A stretch of DNA of 64,000 nt from Bacteriovoracaceae bacterium. GTDB taxonomy: Bacteria > Bdellovibrionota > Bacteriovoracia > Bacteriovoracales > Bacteriovoracaceae. Within the stretch, counting starts at the first letter, position 1, and every line of letters starts with the position of its first letter. Position numbers: made by a program. Shown piece after piece: positions 18,001 to 27,000 of this stretch. The stretch lies in the NCBI GenBank assembly GCA_048270185.1, contig JBLWTJ010000001.1:544001-608000 (forward strand), given 5' to 3'.

Positions 18001-21000
18001 CTTGCCAAACAAATTTACCCTCTCGGTTTTGACTTTAGAAAATGTACGGTCTTAGGCGATAAATTTGATCAAGTTATCAAAGAAATTCAAAATCAGGCCA
18101 AAGAGAATGACTTTCTTATCATTACAGGTGGACTTGGGCCAACAAAAGATGACTTAACAAAATCCATTGTGGCCCAAACAATCGGTGCTAAACTTGAAGA
18201 GAATGAAGAAGCACTTGCCCTAGCAATCGAGCAATACCAACGCTTCGGTCGTGAATATAACAAAGAATCTGGCCAGTACCATATGCTTCCAAGTGGTACG
18301 ACTCCCCTACCAAACCCAACGGGAATGGCCCCAGGAATTCATGGCAAGATCGGCAACTGCCAATTCTTTTGCACCCCAGGTGTTCCAAGGGAATGTGAGG
18401 CCATGATTCGTGAATCAGTCCTTCCAATAATTAAAGGGCAAGCAGGAGAGGCCCACGAGTTATTTGTGGCAAGAACTCATAGTATCCCAGAAGAGACAAT
18501 TTTCTTTAAACTATGCCCTGGACTCTGGGAGAGATTAGAAAAGTACGGAAAAGTAAGTTCCCTTCCAATTATATCAGGCGTGGATATTACAATTAATCTC
18601 AAAGAAGAGTTTCACAACGAAGAGGCCAGGGCAGAAATTCGTGCCATCATTGAATCGACTCCTCTTAAAGACAATATTTGGACATATGGCCTAAGATCCA
18701 TCGAAGAAGTCATTGTTGAAGAGGCCACTGCAAAAAATCTAACGATTGGCTTTGCCGAAAGCTGCACAGGAGGTCTTGCTAGCTCAACTATCACAGATGT
18801 CTCAGGTTCTTCAAATATCTTCCTTGGCAGTGTCGTTAGCTACGCCAATAGTGTGAAAGAGAACATCATACATGTGTCAAATGAAACCCTAAAAGAATTT
18901 GGCGCCGTTAGTATTCAAACAGCTAAAGAGATGGCCCTTGGTGCACAAAAATCACTTGCAGTTGATATCGCTATTTCTTTTACAGGAATAGCAGGTCCAG
19001 GCGGAGGAACGACGGAGAAGCCAGTCGGAACAGTTTGTATTGGTGTTGCGACGAAGGATTCAGCAAGTTCTGAACGCTATGAATTTCGCGGCAATCGCAA
19101 AAGACTTAAGAATAAATTTTGTCAGCAGGGTTTGATCCTACTATTAAATGCAATACGAAAATCTAAATAGGTGCACGCAACCTTTTCAAGATTCTAATAC
19201 TTTACGTTCATGTGAAGATATTCCATTAGGTATATTGAAGTAACTTCTTTTTAAGGATCTCTTCATTATATTTGAGGCATTAGAACAAAATTGTTTTTCA
19301 TAAAAACTGACTTCATCTGTATATCTGAAATGTGGTTTAAAATTAATTAAACGCCCCTCAAAATTTGTAAAATGCAAAGAACTGTATGGATATGAAATAC
19401 AACGATCAACAATCCCTGCTCTCAATGGGTTCTGATAAATATATCGATAAACATTTTGTAGGTAATTATTATCCTGAACAATAGACCACTTATAACGATT
19501 ACTAAATTTATGATTGATAACTTTTGAATATTTAGCAATTGATTTAGAGAGTCGATGATTAAATAACATCATAAATTTATCAATATTTTCATCAGGAGTG
19601 GTAATAAGAAGATGATAATGATTATTCATTAGAACAAAACAATTAACTTCAACATCAACTCTCTCTCGCGCGTAGATTAAAGCTTGCTTAGCTATATCCC
19701 AAACATGATACAAAGGTAACGGAAATGGAACCTTGTTATTTGTTCTTGATGTAACATGATATGGATACTTACTTTGTCTTATTAATTTAGGTCTAGGCAT
19801 GTTTAGCATATCTACTAATTTATAAAATAAAGCGATGATAAAAATACAATTGGAATATACATTTCATTTTTGAAATCGGTACGCGCAACCTTTTCGTGAA
19901 ATAGATAACTTATGTAATATAGATTCTTTTCGTATCAAGAGAAATAGACAATGTAGAGCATAGTATTAATTGCGCTAATCCTAGAGAGTGATTTGTATTA
20001 AGCAGAATAATAGTTAAGTGAAGGAATTGTTATTTGTAAATAAGAATCAGTATAACTGACTTGAATCACGAAAAGGTTGCGTGCACCAAAAACCAAAAAA
20101 AGAGGCCATACAATGTATGGCCCCTTACCTCATCTCAGCTTATAACTTAGGCAGCATTTTTATTCTCAATTTCCATGATAAGGTTTGAGATTCGTTTACC
20201 TGCGCCTTGTAAACGTCCGGCCAGTAATCTTGATAGATTGAGAATCAAGAGTGAAAATATTCGAGGATTGGTTTTATACAGGCCGAATATGTCGGAGTAG
20301 TTCATGACTAAGACGTCGGTAAAGTTATCTGATTGTACTGTCCCATAGCGGACATTTTCTTTTAAAAGAACCATTTCACCAAAGAGGTCTCCCTTTTTGA
20401 TTTTGGCTATTTCTTTATTGTCGCGATTAAAAACACGAGCGGTACCGTTTAGGATTAGATAAAGCTCTTCACCAATATCACCGTGTTTGAAAACAAAATC
20501 ATCTGGTTTAAGTGTGAGAACCTTACAGTGCTCACAGATTGTCATAATCTCGTTATCATATAAATCAAAGAATAACGGACAACCTTTAACGATTGATAAT
20601 ACACTCATCTTGACCGCCCCTTATTAAGCTATTTTCTTTTCATCATGCTTAGCTGGTGACTGATTCAAAGTTTTCTCTTCTTTCAAGTAGCGTTCGATAC
20701 TTTGAAGAACCTTAAGTACACCTTGCATAGCAGTTTGATCTTTCGAGTTACCTTTTTGAAGGTGATACCAAAGATTCTGCATTGAAGTCTCAACCTTTTT
20801 AAAGATCTTAAAACGCTTTTCAGGTAATGGGAAAAGTGTGTTTAGAAACGTTAAAATCAGTGAGAAGAAAATCCCCGCAATCGATGTCTTCATCGAGAAG
20901 GCAACGTTAATAACGAAACGAGTAAGGTTATCTGATGACTTTTCAATATTATTGAAGTCGATGGCCGCAATCTCAGGAAGGGCCATGGCAATACCAATGA

Positions 21001-24000: not shown

Positions 24001-27000
24001 TGAGAACGCGCAAGGTTTGATTTTAAACCTTTAACGTCATCATTAAGTCCTGCGATTTTGCCATCTCTTGCAGCTACATCTGCATTAAGCTTTTTAATTT
24101 CGGAATCTTTTTGAGCAGTAAGAGAATCCATTGCTTGTGCATGCTTGCCTTTTAAATCCTTAATTTGATTATCGTAAGCAAGTTTTTGATCAGACTTACT
24201 CTTCTCATATTGTTTAGTAAGATCTGTCAGCTCTCTCTTGTGATCGGCATTTAATTTTGCAATCTGTGACTGAGCATCTTTTTTAACACCAGCAAGTTGC
24301 TTATCTTTAGATTCAAGTTCTGATTGAAACTTTTTATTTAAGTCAGCAATTTTTGATTCATAGCCTGCTTTTTGTTTCGCTTCAGATTTCTTATGCATTT
24401 TTTCTAGATCAGTGATCTTCTTTGCATGATCTGAATTAAGCTTTGCAATTGTCTCTTGTGATTTTTTAATTGTTCCAGCAAGTTGCGCATCTTTAGTATC
24501 TAGTTCCGCTTGAAACTTTTTATTTAGGTTAGCGATCTTAGATTCATAACCCATCTTGGTATCTTGTTGTTGTTTTTGATGAGATTTCGTCAAATCGTTA
24601 ACTTTTTTAGCGTGATCTGAGTTAAGTTTTGCAATAGTTTCTTGAGACTTCTTAATTGTACCGGCAAGTTGTTTTTCTTTTGTATCAAGCTCTGACTGGT
24701 ACTTCTTATTAAGATTTGCAATTTGAGTTTCATAACCCATTTTCGTATCTTGTTCTTTTTTCTCAAATGACTTCGTTAAATCAGCAACTTGTTTAGCGTG
24801 ATCAGAGTTCATTTTAGCAATTGTTTCTTGTGACTTCTTCTTCTGACCAGCTAATTGTTGGTCCTTAGAAGTTAGCTCTGATTGAAATTTCTTATTTAGA
24901 TTAGCAATCTGAGTCTCATAACCCATCTTTGTATCTTGTTGTTTCTTTTCATAACTCTTTGTAATAGAGTCAACTTTCTTTGCATGATCAGAGTTAAGTT
25001 TTGCAATTGTGTCTTTTGACTTCTTAATTTCACCATCTAATTGCTGCTGCTTAGCAGTTAATTCGGACTGGTGCTTCTTACTTAAATTTGCAATCTGAGT
25101 CTCATGGCCCATTTGGGTATCACGCTGCTTCTTCTCATAAGACTTTGTTAAATCGTTAACTTTCTTTGCATGATCAGTATTAAGTCGAGCTATTGTCTCT
25201 TGAGACTCTTTCTTTTGACCAGCTAATTGCTTTTCTTTAACATCGAGTTCACCCTGATACTTCTTATTAAGATTAGCGATTTGTGATTCATAACCCATTT
25301 TTGTATTTTGCTGTTGTTTCTCGTAAGTCTTTGTTAAGTCAGCAACTTTCTTTTGGTGATCTGAATTAAGTCGAGCGATTGTTTCTTGAGAATCCTTCTT
25401 TTGACCTGCAAGTTGCTTTTCTTTTGTATCAAGTTCTGATTGAAACTTTTTATTCATATCAGCGACTTGTTTTTCAAAACCAGCTTTTTGTTGTTGCTTT
25501 TGTTGCTCATAGGTCTTAGTTAAGTCAGCAACTTTATTTTGATGATCAGCATTTAAGGTCTTAATCTCATGTTCTTTTGTTGAAATAATATTTGCATACT
25601 TCTTATTTAGGTTTTCAACCTTAAGAGTATGGTCTTGATTAAGCTTTTGCACTTCTTGTTCTTGAGCTTTCTTTTGCTCAACAATTTCATTTTCTAATTT
25701 TTCTTGTGCAATAATACGCCCCTGAATCTCTCGATTGGCCTTAGCGATTGCTTCTTCATTCTTTCTCTTAACCTGCTGAAGCTCCTGAATTTTCTTTGTA
25801 TCTTCTTGTACTTTAGCCAGAGTATTAGCAAGCTTTGAGCGTACTTTTACAACTTCATTATTGATTAGATTATTTTGAGCAACTTGCTCCTTAACCTTTT
25901 CTTGTTCAACTTTAAGTTTTGATTCTAATGATTTCTTAGTTACTTCAATTTGCTTGATATCTTGAGTTTGCTTAGAAACTTGAGTTTTTAACTCTTGAAG
26001 TTTCTTTTCTTGTCTTGCTTTTACGTCATTAACATTAGAAAGAAGGTTCTCAAGATCCTTCTTCTCTTTTTCCACTTCTTTCTTCTTCTTATCTAGTTCT
26101 CCGACACGAGAAAATAAAATATTTTCCTTATCTTTAGCTTTAGCAAGCATCGAGTCACGATCTTTAATTGCTTTTTCAAGATCAATTAATGATTTCTCTT
26201 TATGCTCTAGCACAACTTTGATTTGCTTCTTCTCTTCTTCTTTCTTTTTAATTTCTTCTTTTGTTTCTTTTAGACTCTCAGAAAGCTTTTCATTTTCTTT
26301 TGACTTTTGTTTCATTTCTTTCTGAATTTGCTGAATTTTCTTTTGAAGCTCTTTTTCTTCTTTTTTCTGACGCTCCATCATTCTTGATAACTTATCAAGC
26401 TGGGCCTCTTTTGAACGAAGGTCATCGTCATTTTTACGAATCTCTTCAAGACGTTTCTTAAGCTCTTCAGCTTTCTCATTGATTTCTTTCTTTAACTGAG
26501 TATTTTCACGTGAGATTTTTTTAGATTTGTATTTTTCTTTATCAAGTTGTTGACCAACTTTTTCGACAATAGACTCTTTTTTGATTTGGTCCTTGACCAT
26601 ATCCTGCATTACTTTCTTATTTTGCTCTAATTTTTCGACAAATTTTGAAAGTTCGACCATCTTCTGGTTAATAACGTTCTTATAATCAGTGACCTCATTG
26701 ATTGATTGCTCAATCTTATTCTTGGCCTTCATCTCTTTTATTTTCTGTTCTTTAGAGACCATCCCTTGCATTTGTTCTTCGTGTTTCTTCTTTTCTTGCG
26801 CTTGCTGCAAAGACTTCACCCCGACCTTAATCATGGCGAAAACGAACATAACAAGGAATACAACGGCAACGGTTGTAAACATATCTGAGTATGAACTCCA
26901 GATTGACCCGTCGTCTTTTCTTTCTTCTCTTTTCATAATCCTACCCTCGAACAGTTGATAGGATAGCGATTTATAGAACTTATTAAATACTAGTTATGTT

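Follow-up and report, generated by a model that had tools for sequence, protein, structure and literature searches.

The window, a stretch of 64,000 nucleotides (positions 544,001 to 608,000 of contig JBLWTJ010000001.1) from a Bacteriovoracaceae bacterium, carries three close-set genes on its minus strand. In their order they encode a ZorB-like subunit (B), a ZorA-like subunit (A) and a stand-alone cyclic nucleotide (cNMP) binding protein (C) (Table 1). The reading frames of B and A are as claimed in an earlier note on this DNA, and the strings quoted there are all found in the two translations. The unit was described as one of two genes, but it consists of three, the overlooked one being the cNMP-binding gene, which adjoins A in 63 of 80 related loci. 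The B gene is directly upstream of A in 76 of these loci, and the remaining four are cut at that side. The gaps from B to A and from A to C are mostly between -4 and +20 nt. An FHA gene is present in 10 of the 80 loci, never together with the cNMP gene, and relatives' loci have flanking genes in common. In the window, the neighbours encode CinA and an FAD protein, and an IS200-like transposase gene adjoins the operon. The locus has no effector genes beside A and B and no ZorC, D, E, F or G gene, flagellar or gliding genes are not adjacent, and the operon itself includes no cyclase gene.

Table 1. Features of the three-gene operon, in window coordinates.
Feature	Position	Strand	Basis
Gene B, ZorB-like subunit, 1765 aa	21639..26936	-	ORF and translation; PADLOC ZorB1
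Membrane helix with Asp18, B residues 13-36, WSSYSDMFTTVAVVFLVMFVFAMI	26829..26900	-	Alignment with ZorB
62-aa repeat array, B residues 432-956	24069..25643	-	TRF; LN.DH anchors
21-aa (three-heptad) Gly/Lys-rich array, B residues 1032-1430	22647..23843	-	TRF; GGLK anchors
ZorB/OmpA-type peptidoglycan-binding domain, B residues ~1555-1700, including YNLNLSSRRA	21837..22274	-	Profile of 43 C-termini
Invariant Cys pair C1730 and C1735, C-terminal extension CGxxxC..SQRVE	21732..21749	-	43 C-termini
Gene A, tail-less ZorA-like channel subunit, 323 aa	20624..21595	-	ORF, 38-sequence profile, AF2, fold matches
A residues 187-255, TM2 / periplasmic loop / TM3	20831..21037	-	Alignment of A sequences
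Gene C, stand-alone cyclic-nucleotide-binding protein, 153 aa	20147..20608	-	PF00027
Terminator-like hairpin	20100..20126	-	12-bp stem then T run, 21 nt past gene C stop

Protein A is a three-helix, tail-less channel subunit of the ZorA type. It has a 150-residue cytoplasmic insert, ends 68 residues past TM3, and carries the strings GVFGTFIGI..ALPEIA and TSIAGIFFSLILT. Between residues 187 and 255, P187, G194, G197, T198, F199, M235, S238, G241, I242 and N252 are invariant. In an HMM alignment to E. coli ZorA, T198 corresponds to Thr147, S238 to Ser184 and P187 to Pro136, and both T198 and S238 are kept in 38 of 38 A sequences. Thr147 and Ser184 of ZorA touch Asp26 of ZorB (PMC11946911). An AlphaFold2 model of A built on the 38 sequences (pLDDT 76.9) was compared with 48,161 chains by VIA-align. 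The best matches were ZorA, ExbB and TolQ (8vvi_F Z 11.6; 6ye4_A 10.6; 8qyk_A 10.6 with 235 aligned residues; 8qyd_A 10.5; 8vvn_C 9.9; TolQ 9kpz_A 9.8), with figures close to those obtained before, but helical models can attain Z scores of 10-12 by chance alone, and the assignment rests on the sequence profiles.

Protein B has an N-terminal membrane helix of the ZorB type, which carries the essential Asp, and a C-terminal wall-binding domain of the same type, separated by a heptad-periodic, proline-free coiled coil of about 1500 residues. Residues 13-36 align with the segment FWISYADLMT of E. coli ZorB, which holds Asp26 (8qyd_F, E 0.004, profile search). All 20 orthologues listed share the W-x-x-Y-S-D motif with the window protein, so that the Asp is found in 21/21 B proteins inspected. 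At the other end, the strings VDPKTGNVTLLMDKNLLFETGSSRL, VEGHASP and NLNLSSRRALAISNYI follow one another, and a profile of 43 C-termini matches type II ZorB 8vvi_A (E 4.3e-13) and E. coli ZorB 8qyd_F (E 1.5e-5). YNLxLSxxRA of B aligns with Y151, N152, L155 and R159 of ZorB, the residues named in PMC11946911, and all four wall-binding residues are kept. ZorB also ranks first in Foldseek for a model of a B orthologue (8vvn_B, E 5.6e-10). The PADLOC ZorB1 model matches B in two stretches (E 3.4e-30), and NCBIfam PRK09039 'peptidoglycan-binding protein' models match it weakly (E 3.4e-6 and 1.6e-5). C1730 and C1735, kept in 43/43 aligned C-termini, would fit a periplasmic, oxidising location. Together, the data support B as a membrane-anchored wall-binding protein that is stretched by a long periplasmic coiled coil. 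Since the wall-binding domain is C-terminal, B is the anchored part, and the earlier proposal that it transmits force to the envelope is an inference and not a finding.

No proline occurs in residues 1-1560 of B. The 63/126-bp array reported earlier is confirmed by TRF (22651-23843), but the copy number is 18.9 for the 63-bp and 9 for the 126-bp period rather than 'up to 13'. At the protein level there are 19 GGLK-anchored units of 21 residues in exact phase, with a 42-residue superperiod, and the power at a period of 3.5 residues is 24-37x background along residues 1032-1430. A second array, absent from the earlier note, has a TRF period of 186/372 bp at 24427-25454 (a 186-bp or 62-aa unit), with nine LN.DH anchors, the last eight of which are exactly 62 residues apart. 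The rod is family-wide: it is present in 56/56 complete B proteins, with a longest proline-free stretch of 296-1567 residues. The giant rod described previously thus holds for the family only in kind, as the 1500-residue form is limited to close relatives of the window. This expansion is stable in four of them and so is not strain-specific. Overall, rod length varies more than five-fold, and sister rows of the tree can differ as much as 651 and 1057 aa. The AF2 model of a 522-aa B orthologue has an unbroken single helix from 108 to 308 (pLDDT 76-85), and Pfam PF19220 (crescentin rod) matches B weakly (E 4e-5).

With respect to family, membership in the superfamily of 5:2 ion motors, as proposed earlier, is borne out by the conserved ion-path residues. 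MotA and MotB, to which the earlier note likened the pair, are not its nearest relatives: both profiles and folds are closest to ZorA and ZorB. PADLOC ZorA models match A (E 1.9e-9), the only PDB chains matched by the 38-sequence A profile belong to ZorA (8qyh_A, E 2.4e-5), and for either end of B the top hit of PDB profile searches is ZorB. In the organism's own genome, the family profiles match, beyond themselves, only canonical ZorA (E 2.9e-6) and, as the best hit, ZorB (E 6.3e-6), and none of the six Pfam-positive MotA/ExbB/TolQ genes. The absence of Pfam or NCBIfam rows for A and B holds at curated cut-offs, with all scores below them (MotA_ExbB 14 bits against 22.9, MotB_plug 13 against 24, antiphage_ZorA_2 39.4 against 100). 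The PADLOC Zor matches to A and B had not been given before.

Gene C scores 54.9 bits against the PF00027 cut-off of 27.5 (E 8.5e-15). Its phosphate-binding cassette FGE..R is kept, with G77 invariant and E78 and R87 present in at least 90% of 38 sequences. The genome encodes one class III cyclase and ten cNMP-binding proteins in total. In a sister clade, split from the cNMP clade with an SH-aLRT of 100, a large FHA protein takes the place of the cNMP protein. The operon of this clade in B. bacteriovorus appears to be Bd1167-1169, an assignment in which Bd1167 stands for B and Bd1168 for A on the strength of product names, lengths and gene order rather than sequence. Bd1167-1168-1169 are served by one mapped transcription start, and RPKM values are 932/1354/527 in the attack phase and 35/23/14 in the growth phase, a 26- to 55-fold induction (PMC3627812, supplements 2 and 3). 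Unique peptides have been identified for all three proteins (41, 16 and 52; PMC12546842, supplement 3). These expression values belong to the paralogous FHA clade and to a genus other than that of the window, and they lend indirect support to a role in the predation phase. Nothing in the analysis ties the system to gliding or invasion specifically, as had been suggested. For the window itself, RNA evidence consists of contigs of one RNA library only.

A survey of 401 Bdellovibrionota genomes showed the A/B pair in 171, including 8/8 in the window's genus, and ZorC, a true Zorya gene, in one. In line with the earlier claim of a predator-lineage restriction, the A family is virtually limited to Bdellovibrionota across the collections searched, and the count of 259 homologues of A was reproduced (E<=0.001). 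No match was obtained for 46 of the 100 genomes of the family to which the window belongs, and in some genera only 2/6 or 4/11 genomes gave one. The system is therefore not universal, and dispensable in many predators. Operon structure and distribution are established by these data, and the operon of predatory Halobacteriovorax and relatives is best read as chromosomally inherited. Given the broad, lineage-bound spread, the rarity of ZorC and the common flanks, the operon is not distributed like a defence system.

We consider it probable (about 60%) that the conserved three-gene operon encodes a regulated, non-defence, wall-tethered ion motor of the 5:2 type from the ZorAB branch. With stoichiometry, A-B contact and A-cNMP protein contact taken from homology and gene order only, two B helices would be ringed by five A subunits. 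H+ or Na+ would pass A-T198/S238 onto B-D18, and A5 would rotate against B2. B2 would extend into the periplasm as a parallel two-stranded rod, the tip of which binds peptidoglycan. The cNMP protein lacks an output domain and is proposed to dock on the cytoplasmic domain of A, as PilZ proteins do on flagellar stators, so that cAMP or cGMP could switch or brake the motor; the large FHA protein would fill its place in the sister clade. The likely use would be in envelope mechanics of the attack-phase (free-swimming) cell, namely tension, stiffness or wall-membrane coupling. Rod length would be ~44 nm in the shortest members of the family and ~220 nm in the window protein. The membrane-to-wall distance is 9 nm in E. 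coli. Since even the shortest rod is several times longer, it would have to bend or lie along the wall, and the wide variation in length counts against a fixed geometric role. That a rod anchored 44-220 nm off would make a poor rigid stator argues against this reading, as does the dispensability of the system in many predators.

The closest known system is Zorya ZorA-ZorB (E. coli 8qyd, Shewanella 8vvn, Sulfuricurvum 8vvi; PMC11946911 and PMC11890865). ZorAB is the best and nearly sole profile match for A, the B membrane helix and the B wall-binding domain, and the top fold match of both subunits; the Asp, the Thr/Ser pair and the three-helix A are shared. However, A lacks the cytoplasmic tail of ~500 residues that Zorya needs. 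In ZorB the wall-binding domain follows the helix without a linker, whereas here 300-1500 residues of coiled coil intervene. The B gene precedes the A gene, a cNMP-binding or FHA protein is found in place of ZorC, D, E, F and G, and the spread is broad and lineage-bound, whereas that of Zorya is sporadic. Among other known systems, Tol-Pal (TolQ-TolR-TolA with Pal) has a channel, an Asp helix, a long periplasmic helix and an OmpA-type wall binder as well, and a TolQ-like fold ranks high for A. In contrast to Tol-Pal, the last three parts are on one polypeptide here, the wall binder is ZorB-type and not Pal-type, and the genome's own TolQ/ExbB genes are missed by the family profile. GldLM/PorLM of type IX secretion and gliding is a 5:2-type motor in which GldM, a long periplasmic dimer, carries the output. 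GldM is built of folded domains, spans the periplasm only and has no wall-binding domain, and none of our searches related GldLM/PorLM to A or B. MotAB/PomAB share with B the Asp-bearing helix and an OmpA-like anchor. These flagellar stators have the second-messenger-binding partners YcgR and MotI, and their control by a small nucleotide-binding protein that acts at the cytoplasmic face of the A subunit is known. FlgX is another such stator partner (PMC11725899). A differs from MotA in having three helices instead of four and in lacking a torque-generating interface; the regulator recognises cNMP instead of c-di-GMP, and the context is not flagellar. In the literature searched, no description was found of a motor of this class that combines a B rod with a dedicated cNMP sensor.

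Alternatively, the complex could work from the outside in. The wall-bound rod would report an envelope change (wall-membrane distance, stretch on prey entry, osmotic shock) by opening the ion path, and the cNMP-binding or FHA partner would serve as the cytoplasmic reader of rotation or ion flux. The signalling domains of the third-gene products and the attack-phase expression of the sister operon are compatible with this model, and the wall-binding domain of ZorAB, the closest relatives, has been proposed as a detector of envelope perturbation (PMC11946911; BLAST XVIII report PMC12422006). We nevertheless regard it as unlikely, as cNMP-binding and FHA domains read cytoplasmic signals, which implies inside-out control, A has neither a tail nor another obvious transmitter, and no downstream effector is encoded near the locus.

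A structural role has about the same low probability. Here, B would be a coiled-coil scaffold or tether in the periplasm (a 'periplasmic cytoskeleton') that links membrane and wall or shapes the vibrioid cell, A would merely insert or hold it, and ion flow would have little or no mechanical part. Most of B is indeed rod, its length evolves freely, the crescentin match points the same way, and the Gly/Lys-rich outer face of the 21-mers, judging from the repeat pattern, could permit side-by-side packing. However, the conservation of the Asp in B and of the facing Thr/Ser in A is hard to explain without ion coupling, and a dedicated signalling partner is conserved as well.

It is improbable that the operon is a new type of Zorya-like anti-phage system, in which a cyclic nucleotide made upon infection binds the small protein, opens the AB channel and depolarises the cell (abortive infection). 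The PADLOC matches, the adjoining transposase gene, a true type I Zorya in the same assembly and the similarity of the cNMP-binding domain to that of Pycsar effectors (PADLOC, E 1e-10) are outweighed by the distribution, the reversed gene order, the lack of a cyclase or effector gene in the operon, NCBIfam ZorA scores far under the cut-offs, and the regulation of the sister operon by development, not linked to infection. Moreover, the ZorA tail is absent, although its truncation abolishes Zorya defence (PMC11946911). Finally, a role as an additional stator, serving either the sheathed polar flagellum or gliding, would agree with superfamily membership and attack-phase expression, but is very improbable, because the family profile matches 0/6 of the genome's MotA/ExbB/TolQ genes, flagellar and gliding genes are not adjacent, the Bd1167 promoter entry has no FliA site (PMC3627812, supplement 3), and PomA structures only rank 48-49 in Foldseek for A.

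Genes B and A, encoding the 1765-aa ZorB-like rod subunit and the 323-aa ZorA-like channel subunit, are close-packed on the minus strand together with a third gene, C, for a cyclic-nucleotide-binding (cNMP-binding) protein. The earlier note had treated B and A as a two-gene unit and had passed over gene C; the sequence strings that it quoted were all recovered in the translated sequence. According to a Pfam-only scan, the genes around the operon in the window encode CinA, an FAD-dependent protein, an IS200-like transposase that lies between CinA and the operon, and a large protein without Pfam family. 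No flagellar genes adjoin it in the window. In the related locus L031, 135 nt separate a CinA-like gene from the cNMP gene, and this interval holds no ORF of at least 90 aa; a large ORF homologous to the divergent gene upstream of B occupies the same position in L031 and L050, two relatives from the genus. Contigs from one RNA library are identical to parts of all three operon genes, with other parts of the stretch uncovered, which is a weak hint that the window operon is transcribed; all runs compared with the window consist of contigs, and are thus uninformative on level of expression, strand and transcript ends. The contigs of the two DNA runs compared, X1 and X3, break up inside the 21-mer array of gene B.

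Features of the operon and its surroundings, in window positions
Feature	Position	Strand	Remarks
Gene B	26936..21639	minus	1765-aa ORF
Gene A	21595..20624	minus	323-aa ORF
Third gene, C (cNMP-binding)	20608..20147	minus	153-aa ORF
Hairpin	20126-20100	minus	12-bp stem and T tail, after the third gene
63/126-bp array	22651-23843		in gene B
186-bp array	24427-25454		in gene B
DUF2470 match	24744-24833		residues 702-731 of B
Cysteine pair	22407-22493		residues 1482 and 1510 of B
IS200-like Y1 transposase gene	19186-19809	minus	PF01797, E 1.7e-7; between CinA and the operon
Divergent gene	27293-32206	plus	1637 aa, Cys-rich, lipoprotein-like N-terminus, no Pfam family; upstream of B

The pair has several features of the 5:2 ion-motor superfamily: paired channel helices with a G-x-x-G-T motif, a matching fold, an Asp-bearing helix in B, and adjoining A and B genes. 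An A5B2 stoichiometry with ion-driven rotation would be expected for it. In an alignment of 38 A proteins (A1), residues G194, G197, T198 and F199 of the FGVFGTFIGI stretch are invariant. The A1 profile retrieves only ZorA chains from the PDB sequences (8qyh_A, E 2.4e-5; 8vvn_C; 8vvi_F), and leaves MotA, PomA, ExbB and TolQ in the same set unmatched. The PADLOC ZorA models match A with an E-value of 1.9e-9. For A, the curated Pfam and NCBIfam models all stay below their cut-offs: the scores are 39.4 bits for antiphage_ZorA_2 (cut-off 100), 13.7 and 26 bits for the type I and II ZorA equivalogs (cut-offs 750 and 700), and 14 bits for Pfam MotA_ExbB (gathering score 22.9). Likewise, B scores 13 bits against MotB_plug (gathering score 24). 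MotA_ExbB has eight matches in the assembly; the A1 profile finds among the assembly ORFs only A itself and the canonical ZorA of contig 21 (E 2.9e-6).

A has three long hydrophobic helices, in contrast to the four-helix MotA. In the AlphaFold2 model (pLDDT 76.9, pTM 0.61), a long first helix (residues 2-59) is followed by a cytoplasmic insert, part of which has low confidence, by two further long helices (176-210, 217-254) and by a pair of short helices at the C-terminus; the protein ends 68 residues past TM3, without a cytoplasmic tail. Foldseek places four ZorA chains on top (E 3.3e-3 to 7.7e-3); TolQ and ExbB come next, and PomA occupies ranks 48-49. In the VIA-align comparison with 48,161 chains, the best six matches are all A subunits of 5:2 motors (ZorA, ExbB, TolQ) with Z 9.8-11.6, followed by generic helical bundles with Z of at most 9.4; according to the tool's own note, values of this size are not decisive for helical models, and we therefore base the assignment of A on the sequence profiles. 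A flagellar stator of the MotAB/PomAB type is very unlikely, given the sub-threshold MotA_ExbB and MotB_plug scores, the three helices, the low rank of PomA and the lack of flagellar neighbours.

The residues expected to work in ion transfer are conserved. A-T198 and A-S238 are invariant in all 38 proteins and align with E. coli ZorA Thr147 and Ser184, which contact ZorB Asp26 in the structural work of Hu et al. (PMC11946911). A-T237 is kept in at least 90% of the family; E. coli ZorA has a Gly there, beside Ser184, so that the coupling ion may be H+ or Na+. As a separate observation, a similar tag-like C-terminus is seen in two of the operon's proteins: K-K-x-(A/S/G) in the majority of A proteins, and K-A-A or K-A-S in the majority of cNMP-binding proteins (alignments A1 and A2; window 20624-20640 and 20147-20160).

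The two ends of B are of the ZorB type. The PADLOC ZorB1 model matches B with an E-value of 3.4e-30 in two stretches, one per end; as for A, curated Pfam and NCBIfam models score too low for a family assignment. For the first 70 residues, the best PDB match is E. coli ZorB (E 0.004), with WSSYSDMFT over FWISYADLMT. B Asp18, within a W-S-S-Y-S-D motif found in the 20 orthologues printed and in the window's B, aligns to ZorB Asp26. Many B orthologues (L032-L045) have a conserved H-E-x-x-L-x-G-x-(I/V)-P about 25-35 residues past the membrane helix, a candidate plug or hinge; its Pro is the sole proline before the rod, and the window's B has S in its place.

At the other end, a profile built from 43 B C-termini (A3) matches ZorB of type II best among PDB sequences (E 4.3e-13), then E. 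coli ZorB (E 1.5e-5), with generic OmpA, MotB, PomB and MotS domains below. Among the assembly ORFs it finds B, the canonical ZorB (E 6.3e-6) and one more ORF on contig C2 (E 3.3e-4). The wall-binding residues of ZorB are kept: YNLNLSSRRA of B aligns with YNLHLSLQR of 8qyd_F, corresponding to ZorB Tyr151, Asn152, Leu155 and Arg159, for which the Zorya study predicts a role in wall binding (PMC11946911), and its N, L, S and R are invariant in 43/43 C-termini. The OmpA-like family PF00691 gives no match to the window's B at E<=1, and B orthologues score 23.4 and 17.5 bits (gathering threshold 27.2). Despite these sub-threshold scores, the fold and profile matches clearly predict an OmpA-fold wall binder of the ZorB type. 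AlphaFold2 of a 522-aa orthologue (pLDDT 72.3) shows a membrane helix (19-45), a low-confidence stretch, an unbroken helix (108-308, pLDDT 76-85) and an alpha/beta domain (359-517), for which Foldseek finds ZorB chains 8vvn_B (E 5.6e-10) and 8vvi_A (E 6.7e-10). The Cys pair C1730/C1735 is invariant in A3, which would fit a periplasmic location. A homologue search with the 522-aa orthologue returned 11 proteins, named 'OmpA-like', 'microtubule-binding protein' or 'myosin heavy subunit', and no wider relatives of B. Run against the window's genome, NF006543 (PRK09039) yielded nothing beyond sub-threshold OmpA-like matches.

Between the two ends lies the rod. There is no proline in residues 1-1560 of B, and the composition of residues 40-1540 is 20% K, 10% L, 10% G, 10% E, 9% A and 8% Q. 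The 63/126-bp array encodes 19 in-phase 21-residue units with the consensus GGLK(E/D)ALG.AKG.LAG(M/L)GKE(I/N), in which hydrophobic residues are spaced 3-4-3-4; the power of the 3.5-residue periodicity over the 21-mers is 24-37 times the background. The 186-bp array encodes 62-residue units with nine LN.DH anchors, the last eight of them exactly 62 residues apart. DUF2470 matches here with 51.6 bits, above its cut-off (E 1.4e-13), but we treat the match as spurious because it covers only 30 of 77 profile positions and lies inside the 62-aa repeat. Matches to SMC, Rad50 and JetC reflect coiled-coil composition only. Near the rod end, two cysteines are 28 residues, or four heptads, apart; they could staple a parallel, in-register B dimer.

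The 56 complete B proteins are 504-1780 aa long (median 745), and their longest proline-free stretch is 296-1567 residues (median 518). The rod length differs widely even between sister rows of the tree (651 versus 1057 aa in one case). The earlier note had raised the possibility that the length in this genome is a strain-specific expansion. Yet the approximately 1760-aa form occurs in the window and in three close relatives with near-equal repeat counts (8-9 62-mers, 18-19 GGLK units), and is therefore stable in the species group, not an accident at the strain level. Contigs of three further species of the genus end inside or beside B, and give no B length. In a close relative (L056, 3562-8956), B is split within the repeats into ORFs of 1304 and 534 aa, by a frameshift or an assembly error.

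Coiled-coil helices rise by about 0.15 nm per residue, at which the rods would be about 44 to 220 nm long. The distance between inner membrane and wall in E. coli is only about 9 nm, as given in a figure legend of PMC11946911, and the rod therefore cannot stand upright in the periplasm. A rod folded back as a hairpin was set aside, since the model of the short orthologue has one unbroken 201-residue helix, a hint only, as it is a monomer model.

Gene C is predicted to be a stand-alone cyclic-nucleotide-binding domain. It matches PF00027 with 54.9 bits (E 8.5e-15, cut-off 27.5), and has the phosphate-binding cassette FGE...R, with G77 invariant and E78 and R87 kept in at least 90% of 38 sequences, and a C-terminal helix with invariant N124, R127 and R132. 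The genome encodes one class III cyclase and ten cNMP-binding proteins. The cNMP gene adjoins A in 16/16 cut-out loci with full-length A matches. In 80 further loci, taken from species-representative genomes, it is present in 63, replaced by a gene for an FHA-domain protein in 10, and neither is detected in 7, where a large Pfam-less protein (three loci) or PutA (two) comes next. The cNMP and FHA genes never occur together in these 80 loci.

The tree of 53 A proteins separates, with full support, a cNMP clade (43 rows) from a clade with FHA or other large third genes (10 rows). The cNMP clade contains two paralogous sub-clades, and some genomes have both. At L119 (8947-9913), A is broken into three ORFs (90, 134 and 91 aa), and looks like a decaying paralogue; the same assembly has an intact second locus, L115.

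A matches (E<=1e-5) occur in 171 of 401 Bdellovibrionota genomes, including 8/8 of the window's genus, 54/100 of its family, and 45/53 and 8/9 of two other families; several smaller families have none. By record title, nearly all A loci are from Bdellovibrionota, apart from a few MAGs labelled Sulfitobacter, Gammaproteobacteria, Muproteobacteria or Auribacterota. The A family is small: when 1.84 billion cluster representatives were searched in full with an HMM, 817 proteins matched at E<=1e-3 and 175 at 1e-10, the latter mostly 280-450 aa long. B lies directly upstream of A in 20/20 cut-out loci and in 76 of the 80 further ones (the other four are cut at a contig end), with intergenic gaps in the operon mostly of -4 to +20 nt, and the flanking genes are common to related genomes.

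The same assembly also carries a textbook type I Zorya system on a contig of about 6 kb (C21; locus L055, 1-5978), which provides a direct contrast within one genome. It encodes ZorA (688 aa, E 2.9e-246), ZorB (251 aa), ZorC (480 aa) and a ZorD cut by the contig end. Its canonical ZorA scores 817 bits on its PADLOC model, as opposed to 35 bits for A. The PADLOC ZorC model PDLC00617, which covers one ZorC subfamily, is found in 1 of the 401 genomes in the same sampling, namely the window's own; as the other 400 are unmatched, C21 may be a mobile element or foreign DNA.

The operon differs from Zorya in several respects. ZorA has a long C-terminal cytoplasmic coiled-coil tail, whereas A has no tail; according to the Zorya study, every tail truncation abolishes defence (PMC11946911). 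As described there, the wall-binding domain of ZorB joins the membrane helix without a linker (PMC11946911), whereas B has about 1500 residues in between, and at least 296 proline-free residues in the 56 complete orthologues. Zorya is accompanied by effectors, whereas the operon has no effector genes: PADLOC on the three operon proteins and the Pfam scan of the neighbours found no ZorC/D, ZorE or ZorF/G family. Finally, the gene order, B then A, is the reverse of the usual order in 5:2 motors.

Developmental data are available for the counterpart from the sister clade. L046 encodes an FHA protein identical in sequence to a B. bacteriovorus database protein, and at 90% it clusters with, among others, the HD100 entry 'Large Ala/Glu-rich protein' (794 aa). 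Karunker et al. 2013 (PMC3627812, supplement 2) list as consecutive genes Bd1167 (1569 nt, 'microtubule binding protein'), Bd1168 (906 nt, hypothetical) and Bd1169. The 906 nt of Bd1168 correspond to 301 aa, the same as A of L046. We equate Bd1167 with B and Bd1168 with A, by name, size and order rather than by sequence. Sister-clade A proteins are about 30-40% identical to the window's A over the channel helices. The expression data concern a paralogous clade, and not the window's own operon: supplement 2 flags all three genes as attack-phase specific, with RPKM for Bd1167/1168/1169 of 932/1354/527 in attack phase and 35/23/14 in growth phase (PMC3627812). Supplement 3 of the same work assigns '1167-1168-1169' to one transcription start (120 reads), and lists no FliA site for it. 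All three products are seen in a TMT proteome, by 41, 16 and 52 unique peptides; their log2 values peak in attack phase, reach a minimum 0.7-1.2 units lower at 3-4 h, and have recovered by 6-7 h (PMC12546842, supplement 3).

5:2 ion motors have four established roles: they rotate flagella, transfer energy in the Ton/Tol systems, drive type IX secretion and gliding, and sense phages in Zorya. For A and B, a functional, ion-coupled complex is favoured by the conserved Asp and Thr/Ser residues, by the close pairing of the two genes and by a fold of the ZorAB type; the wall-binding tip would make B the tethered part. The third protein, apparently a signal reader without an output domain that is swapped for an FHA reader in the sister clade, argues for control of the motor from inside the cell. 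Since the rod is too long and too variable for a rigid stator arm, we favour a role in the envelope mechanics of the attack phase, by tension or torsion in a tether between wall and membrane. Two rivals to this role remain, an outside-in sensor and a mainly structural scaffold. The earlier note had also allowed for a Zorya-like defence system; likeness in the ZorAB core notwithstanding, the distribution, synteny and developmental regulation argue against it.

The boldest reading is a cyclic-nucleotide-gated rotary motor that works on its own axle, as an ion-driven winch or torsion spring. It is a speculative proposal, to which we give a probability of about 0.12. Ion flow would rotate the A ring against the B dimer and twist a two-stranded periplasmic rope of 44-220 nm whose far end is anchored in the wall. 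This rope would store torsion, or shorten like a wound cord and draw inner membrane and wall together. Switched on in attack-phase predators, the motor would stiffen or deform the envelope during squeeze-in to the prey, with a stroke set by the rod length. The operon itself re-uses the Zorya-type core in another layout: the long coiled coil, cytoplasmic and part of A in Zorya, is here periplasmic and part of B, and a second-messenger reader stands in place of the effectors. The operon is inherited throughout a phylum of bacterial predators, and is present in all searched genomes of the window's genus. B, as a periplasmic, wall-anchored motor subunit, is a testable candidate for envelope mechanics in predation, and the natural series of rod lengths, from about 300 to 1500 residues, offers a probe of motor-wall coupling. 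If gating is as homology and gene order suggest, the operon would add a case of a stator-type motor that a second messenger controls directly.

A literature search on ZorB, 5:2 motors, Bdellovibrio and Halobacteriovorax MotA, FHA proteins and periplasmic coiled coils found no description of the system. In the relevant parts of a paper on MotAB evolution, Zorya-type proteins are left out of the trees and coiled coils go unmentioned (PMC12505986). Only Bd1167 and Bd1168 are mentioned, in PMC2797640. Bd1167 has been treated as a cytoskeletal coiled coil, as 'microtubule binding protein' in public annotation and as 'crescentin like' in a 2010 paper; that it has a membrane helix and a wall-binding domain of the ZorB type seems to have been overlooked so far.
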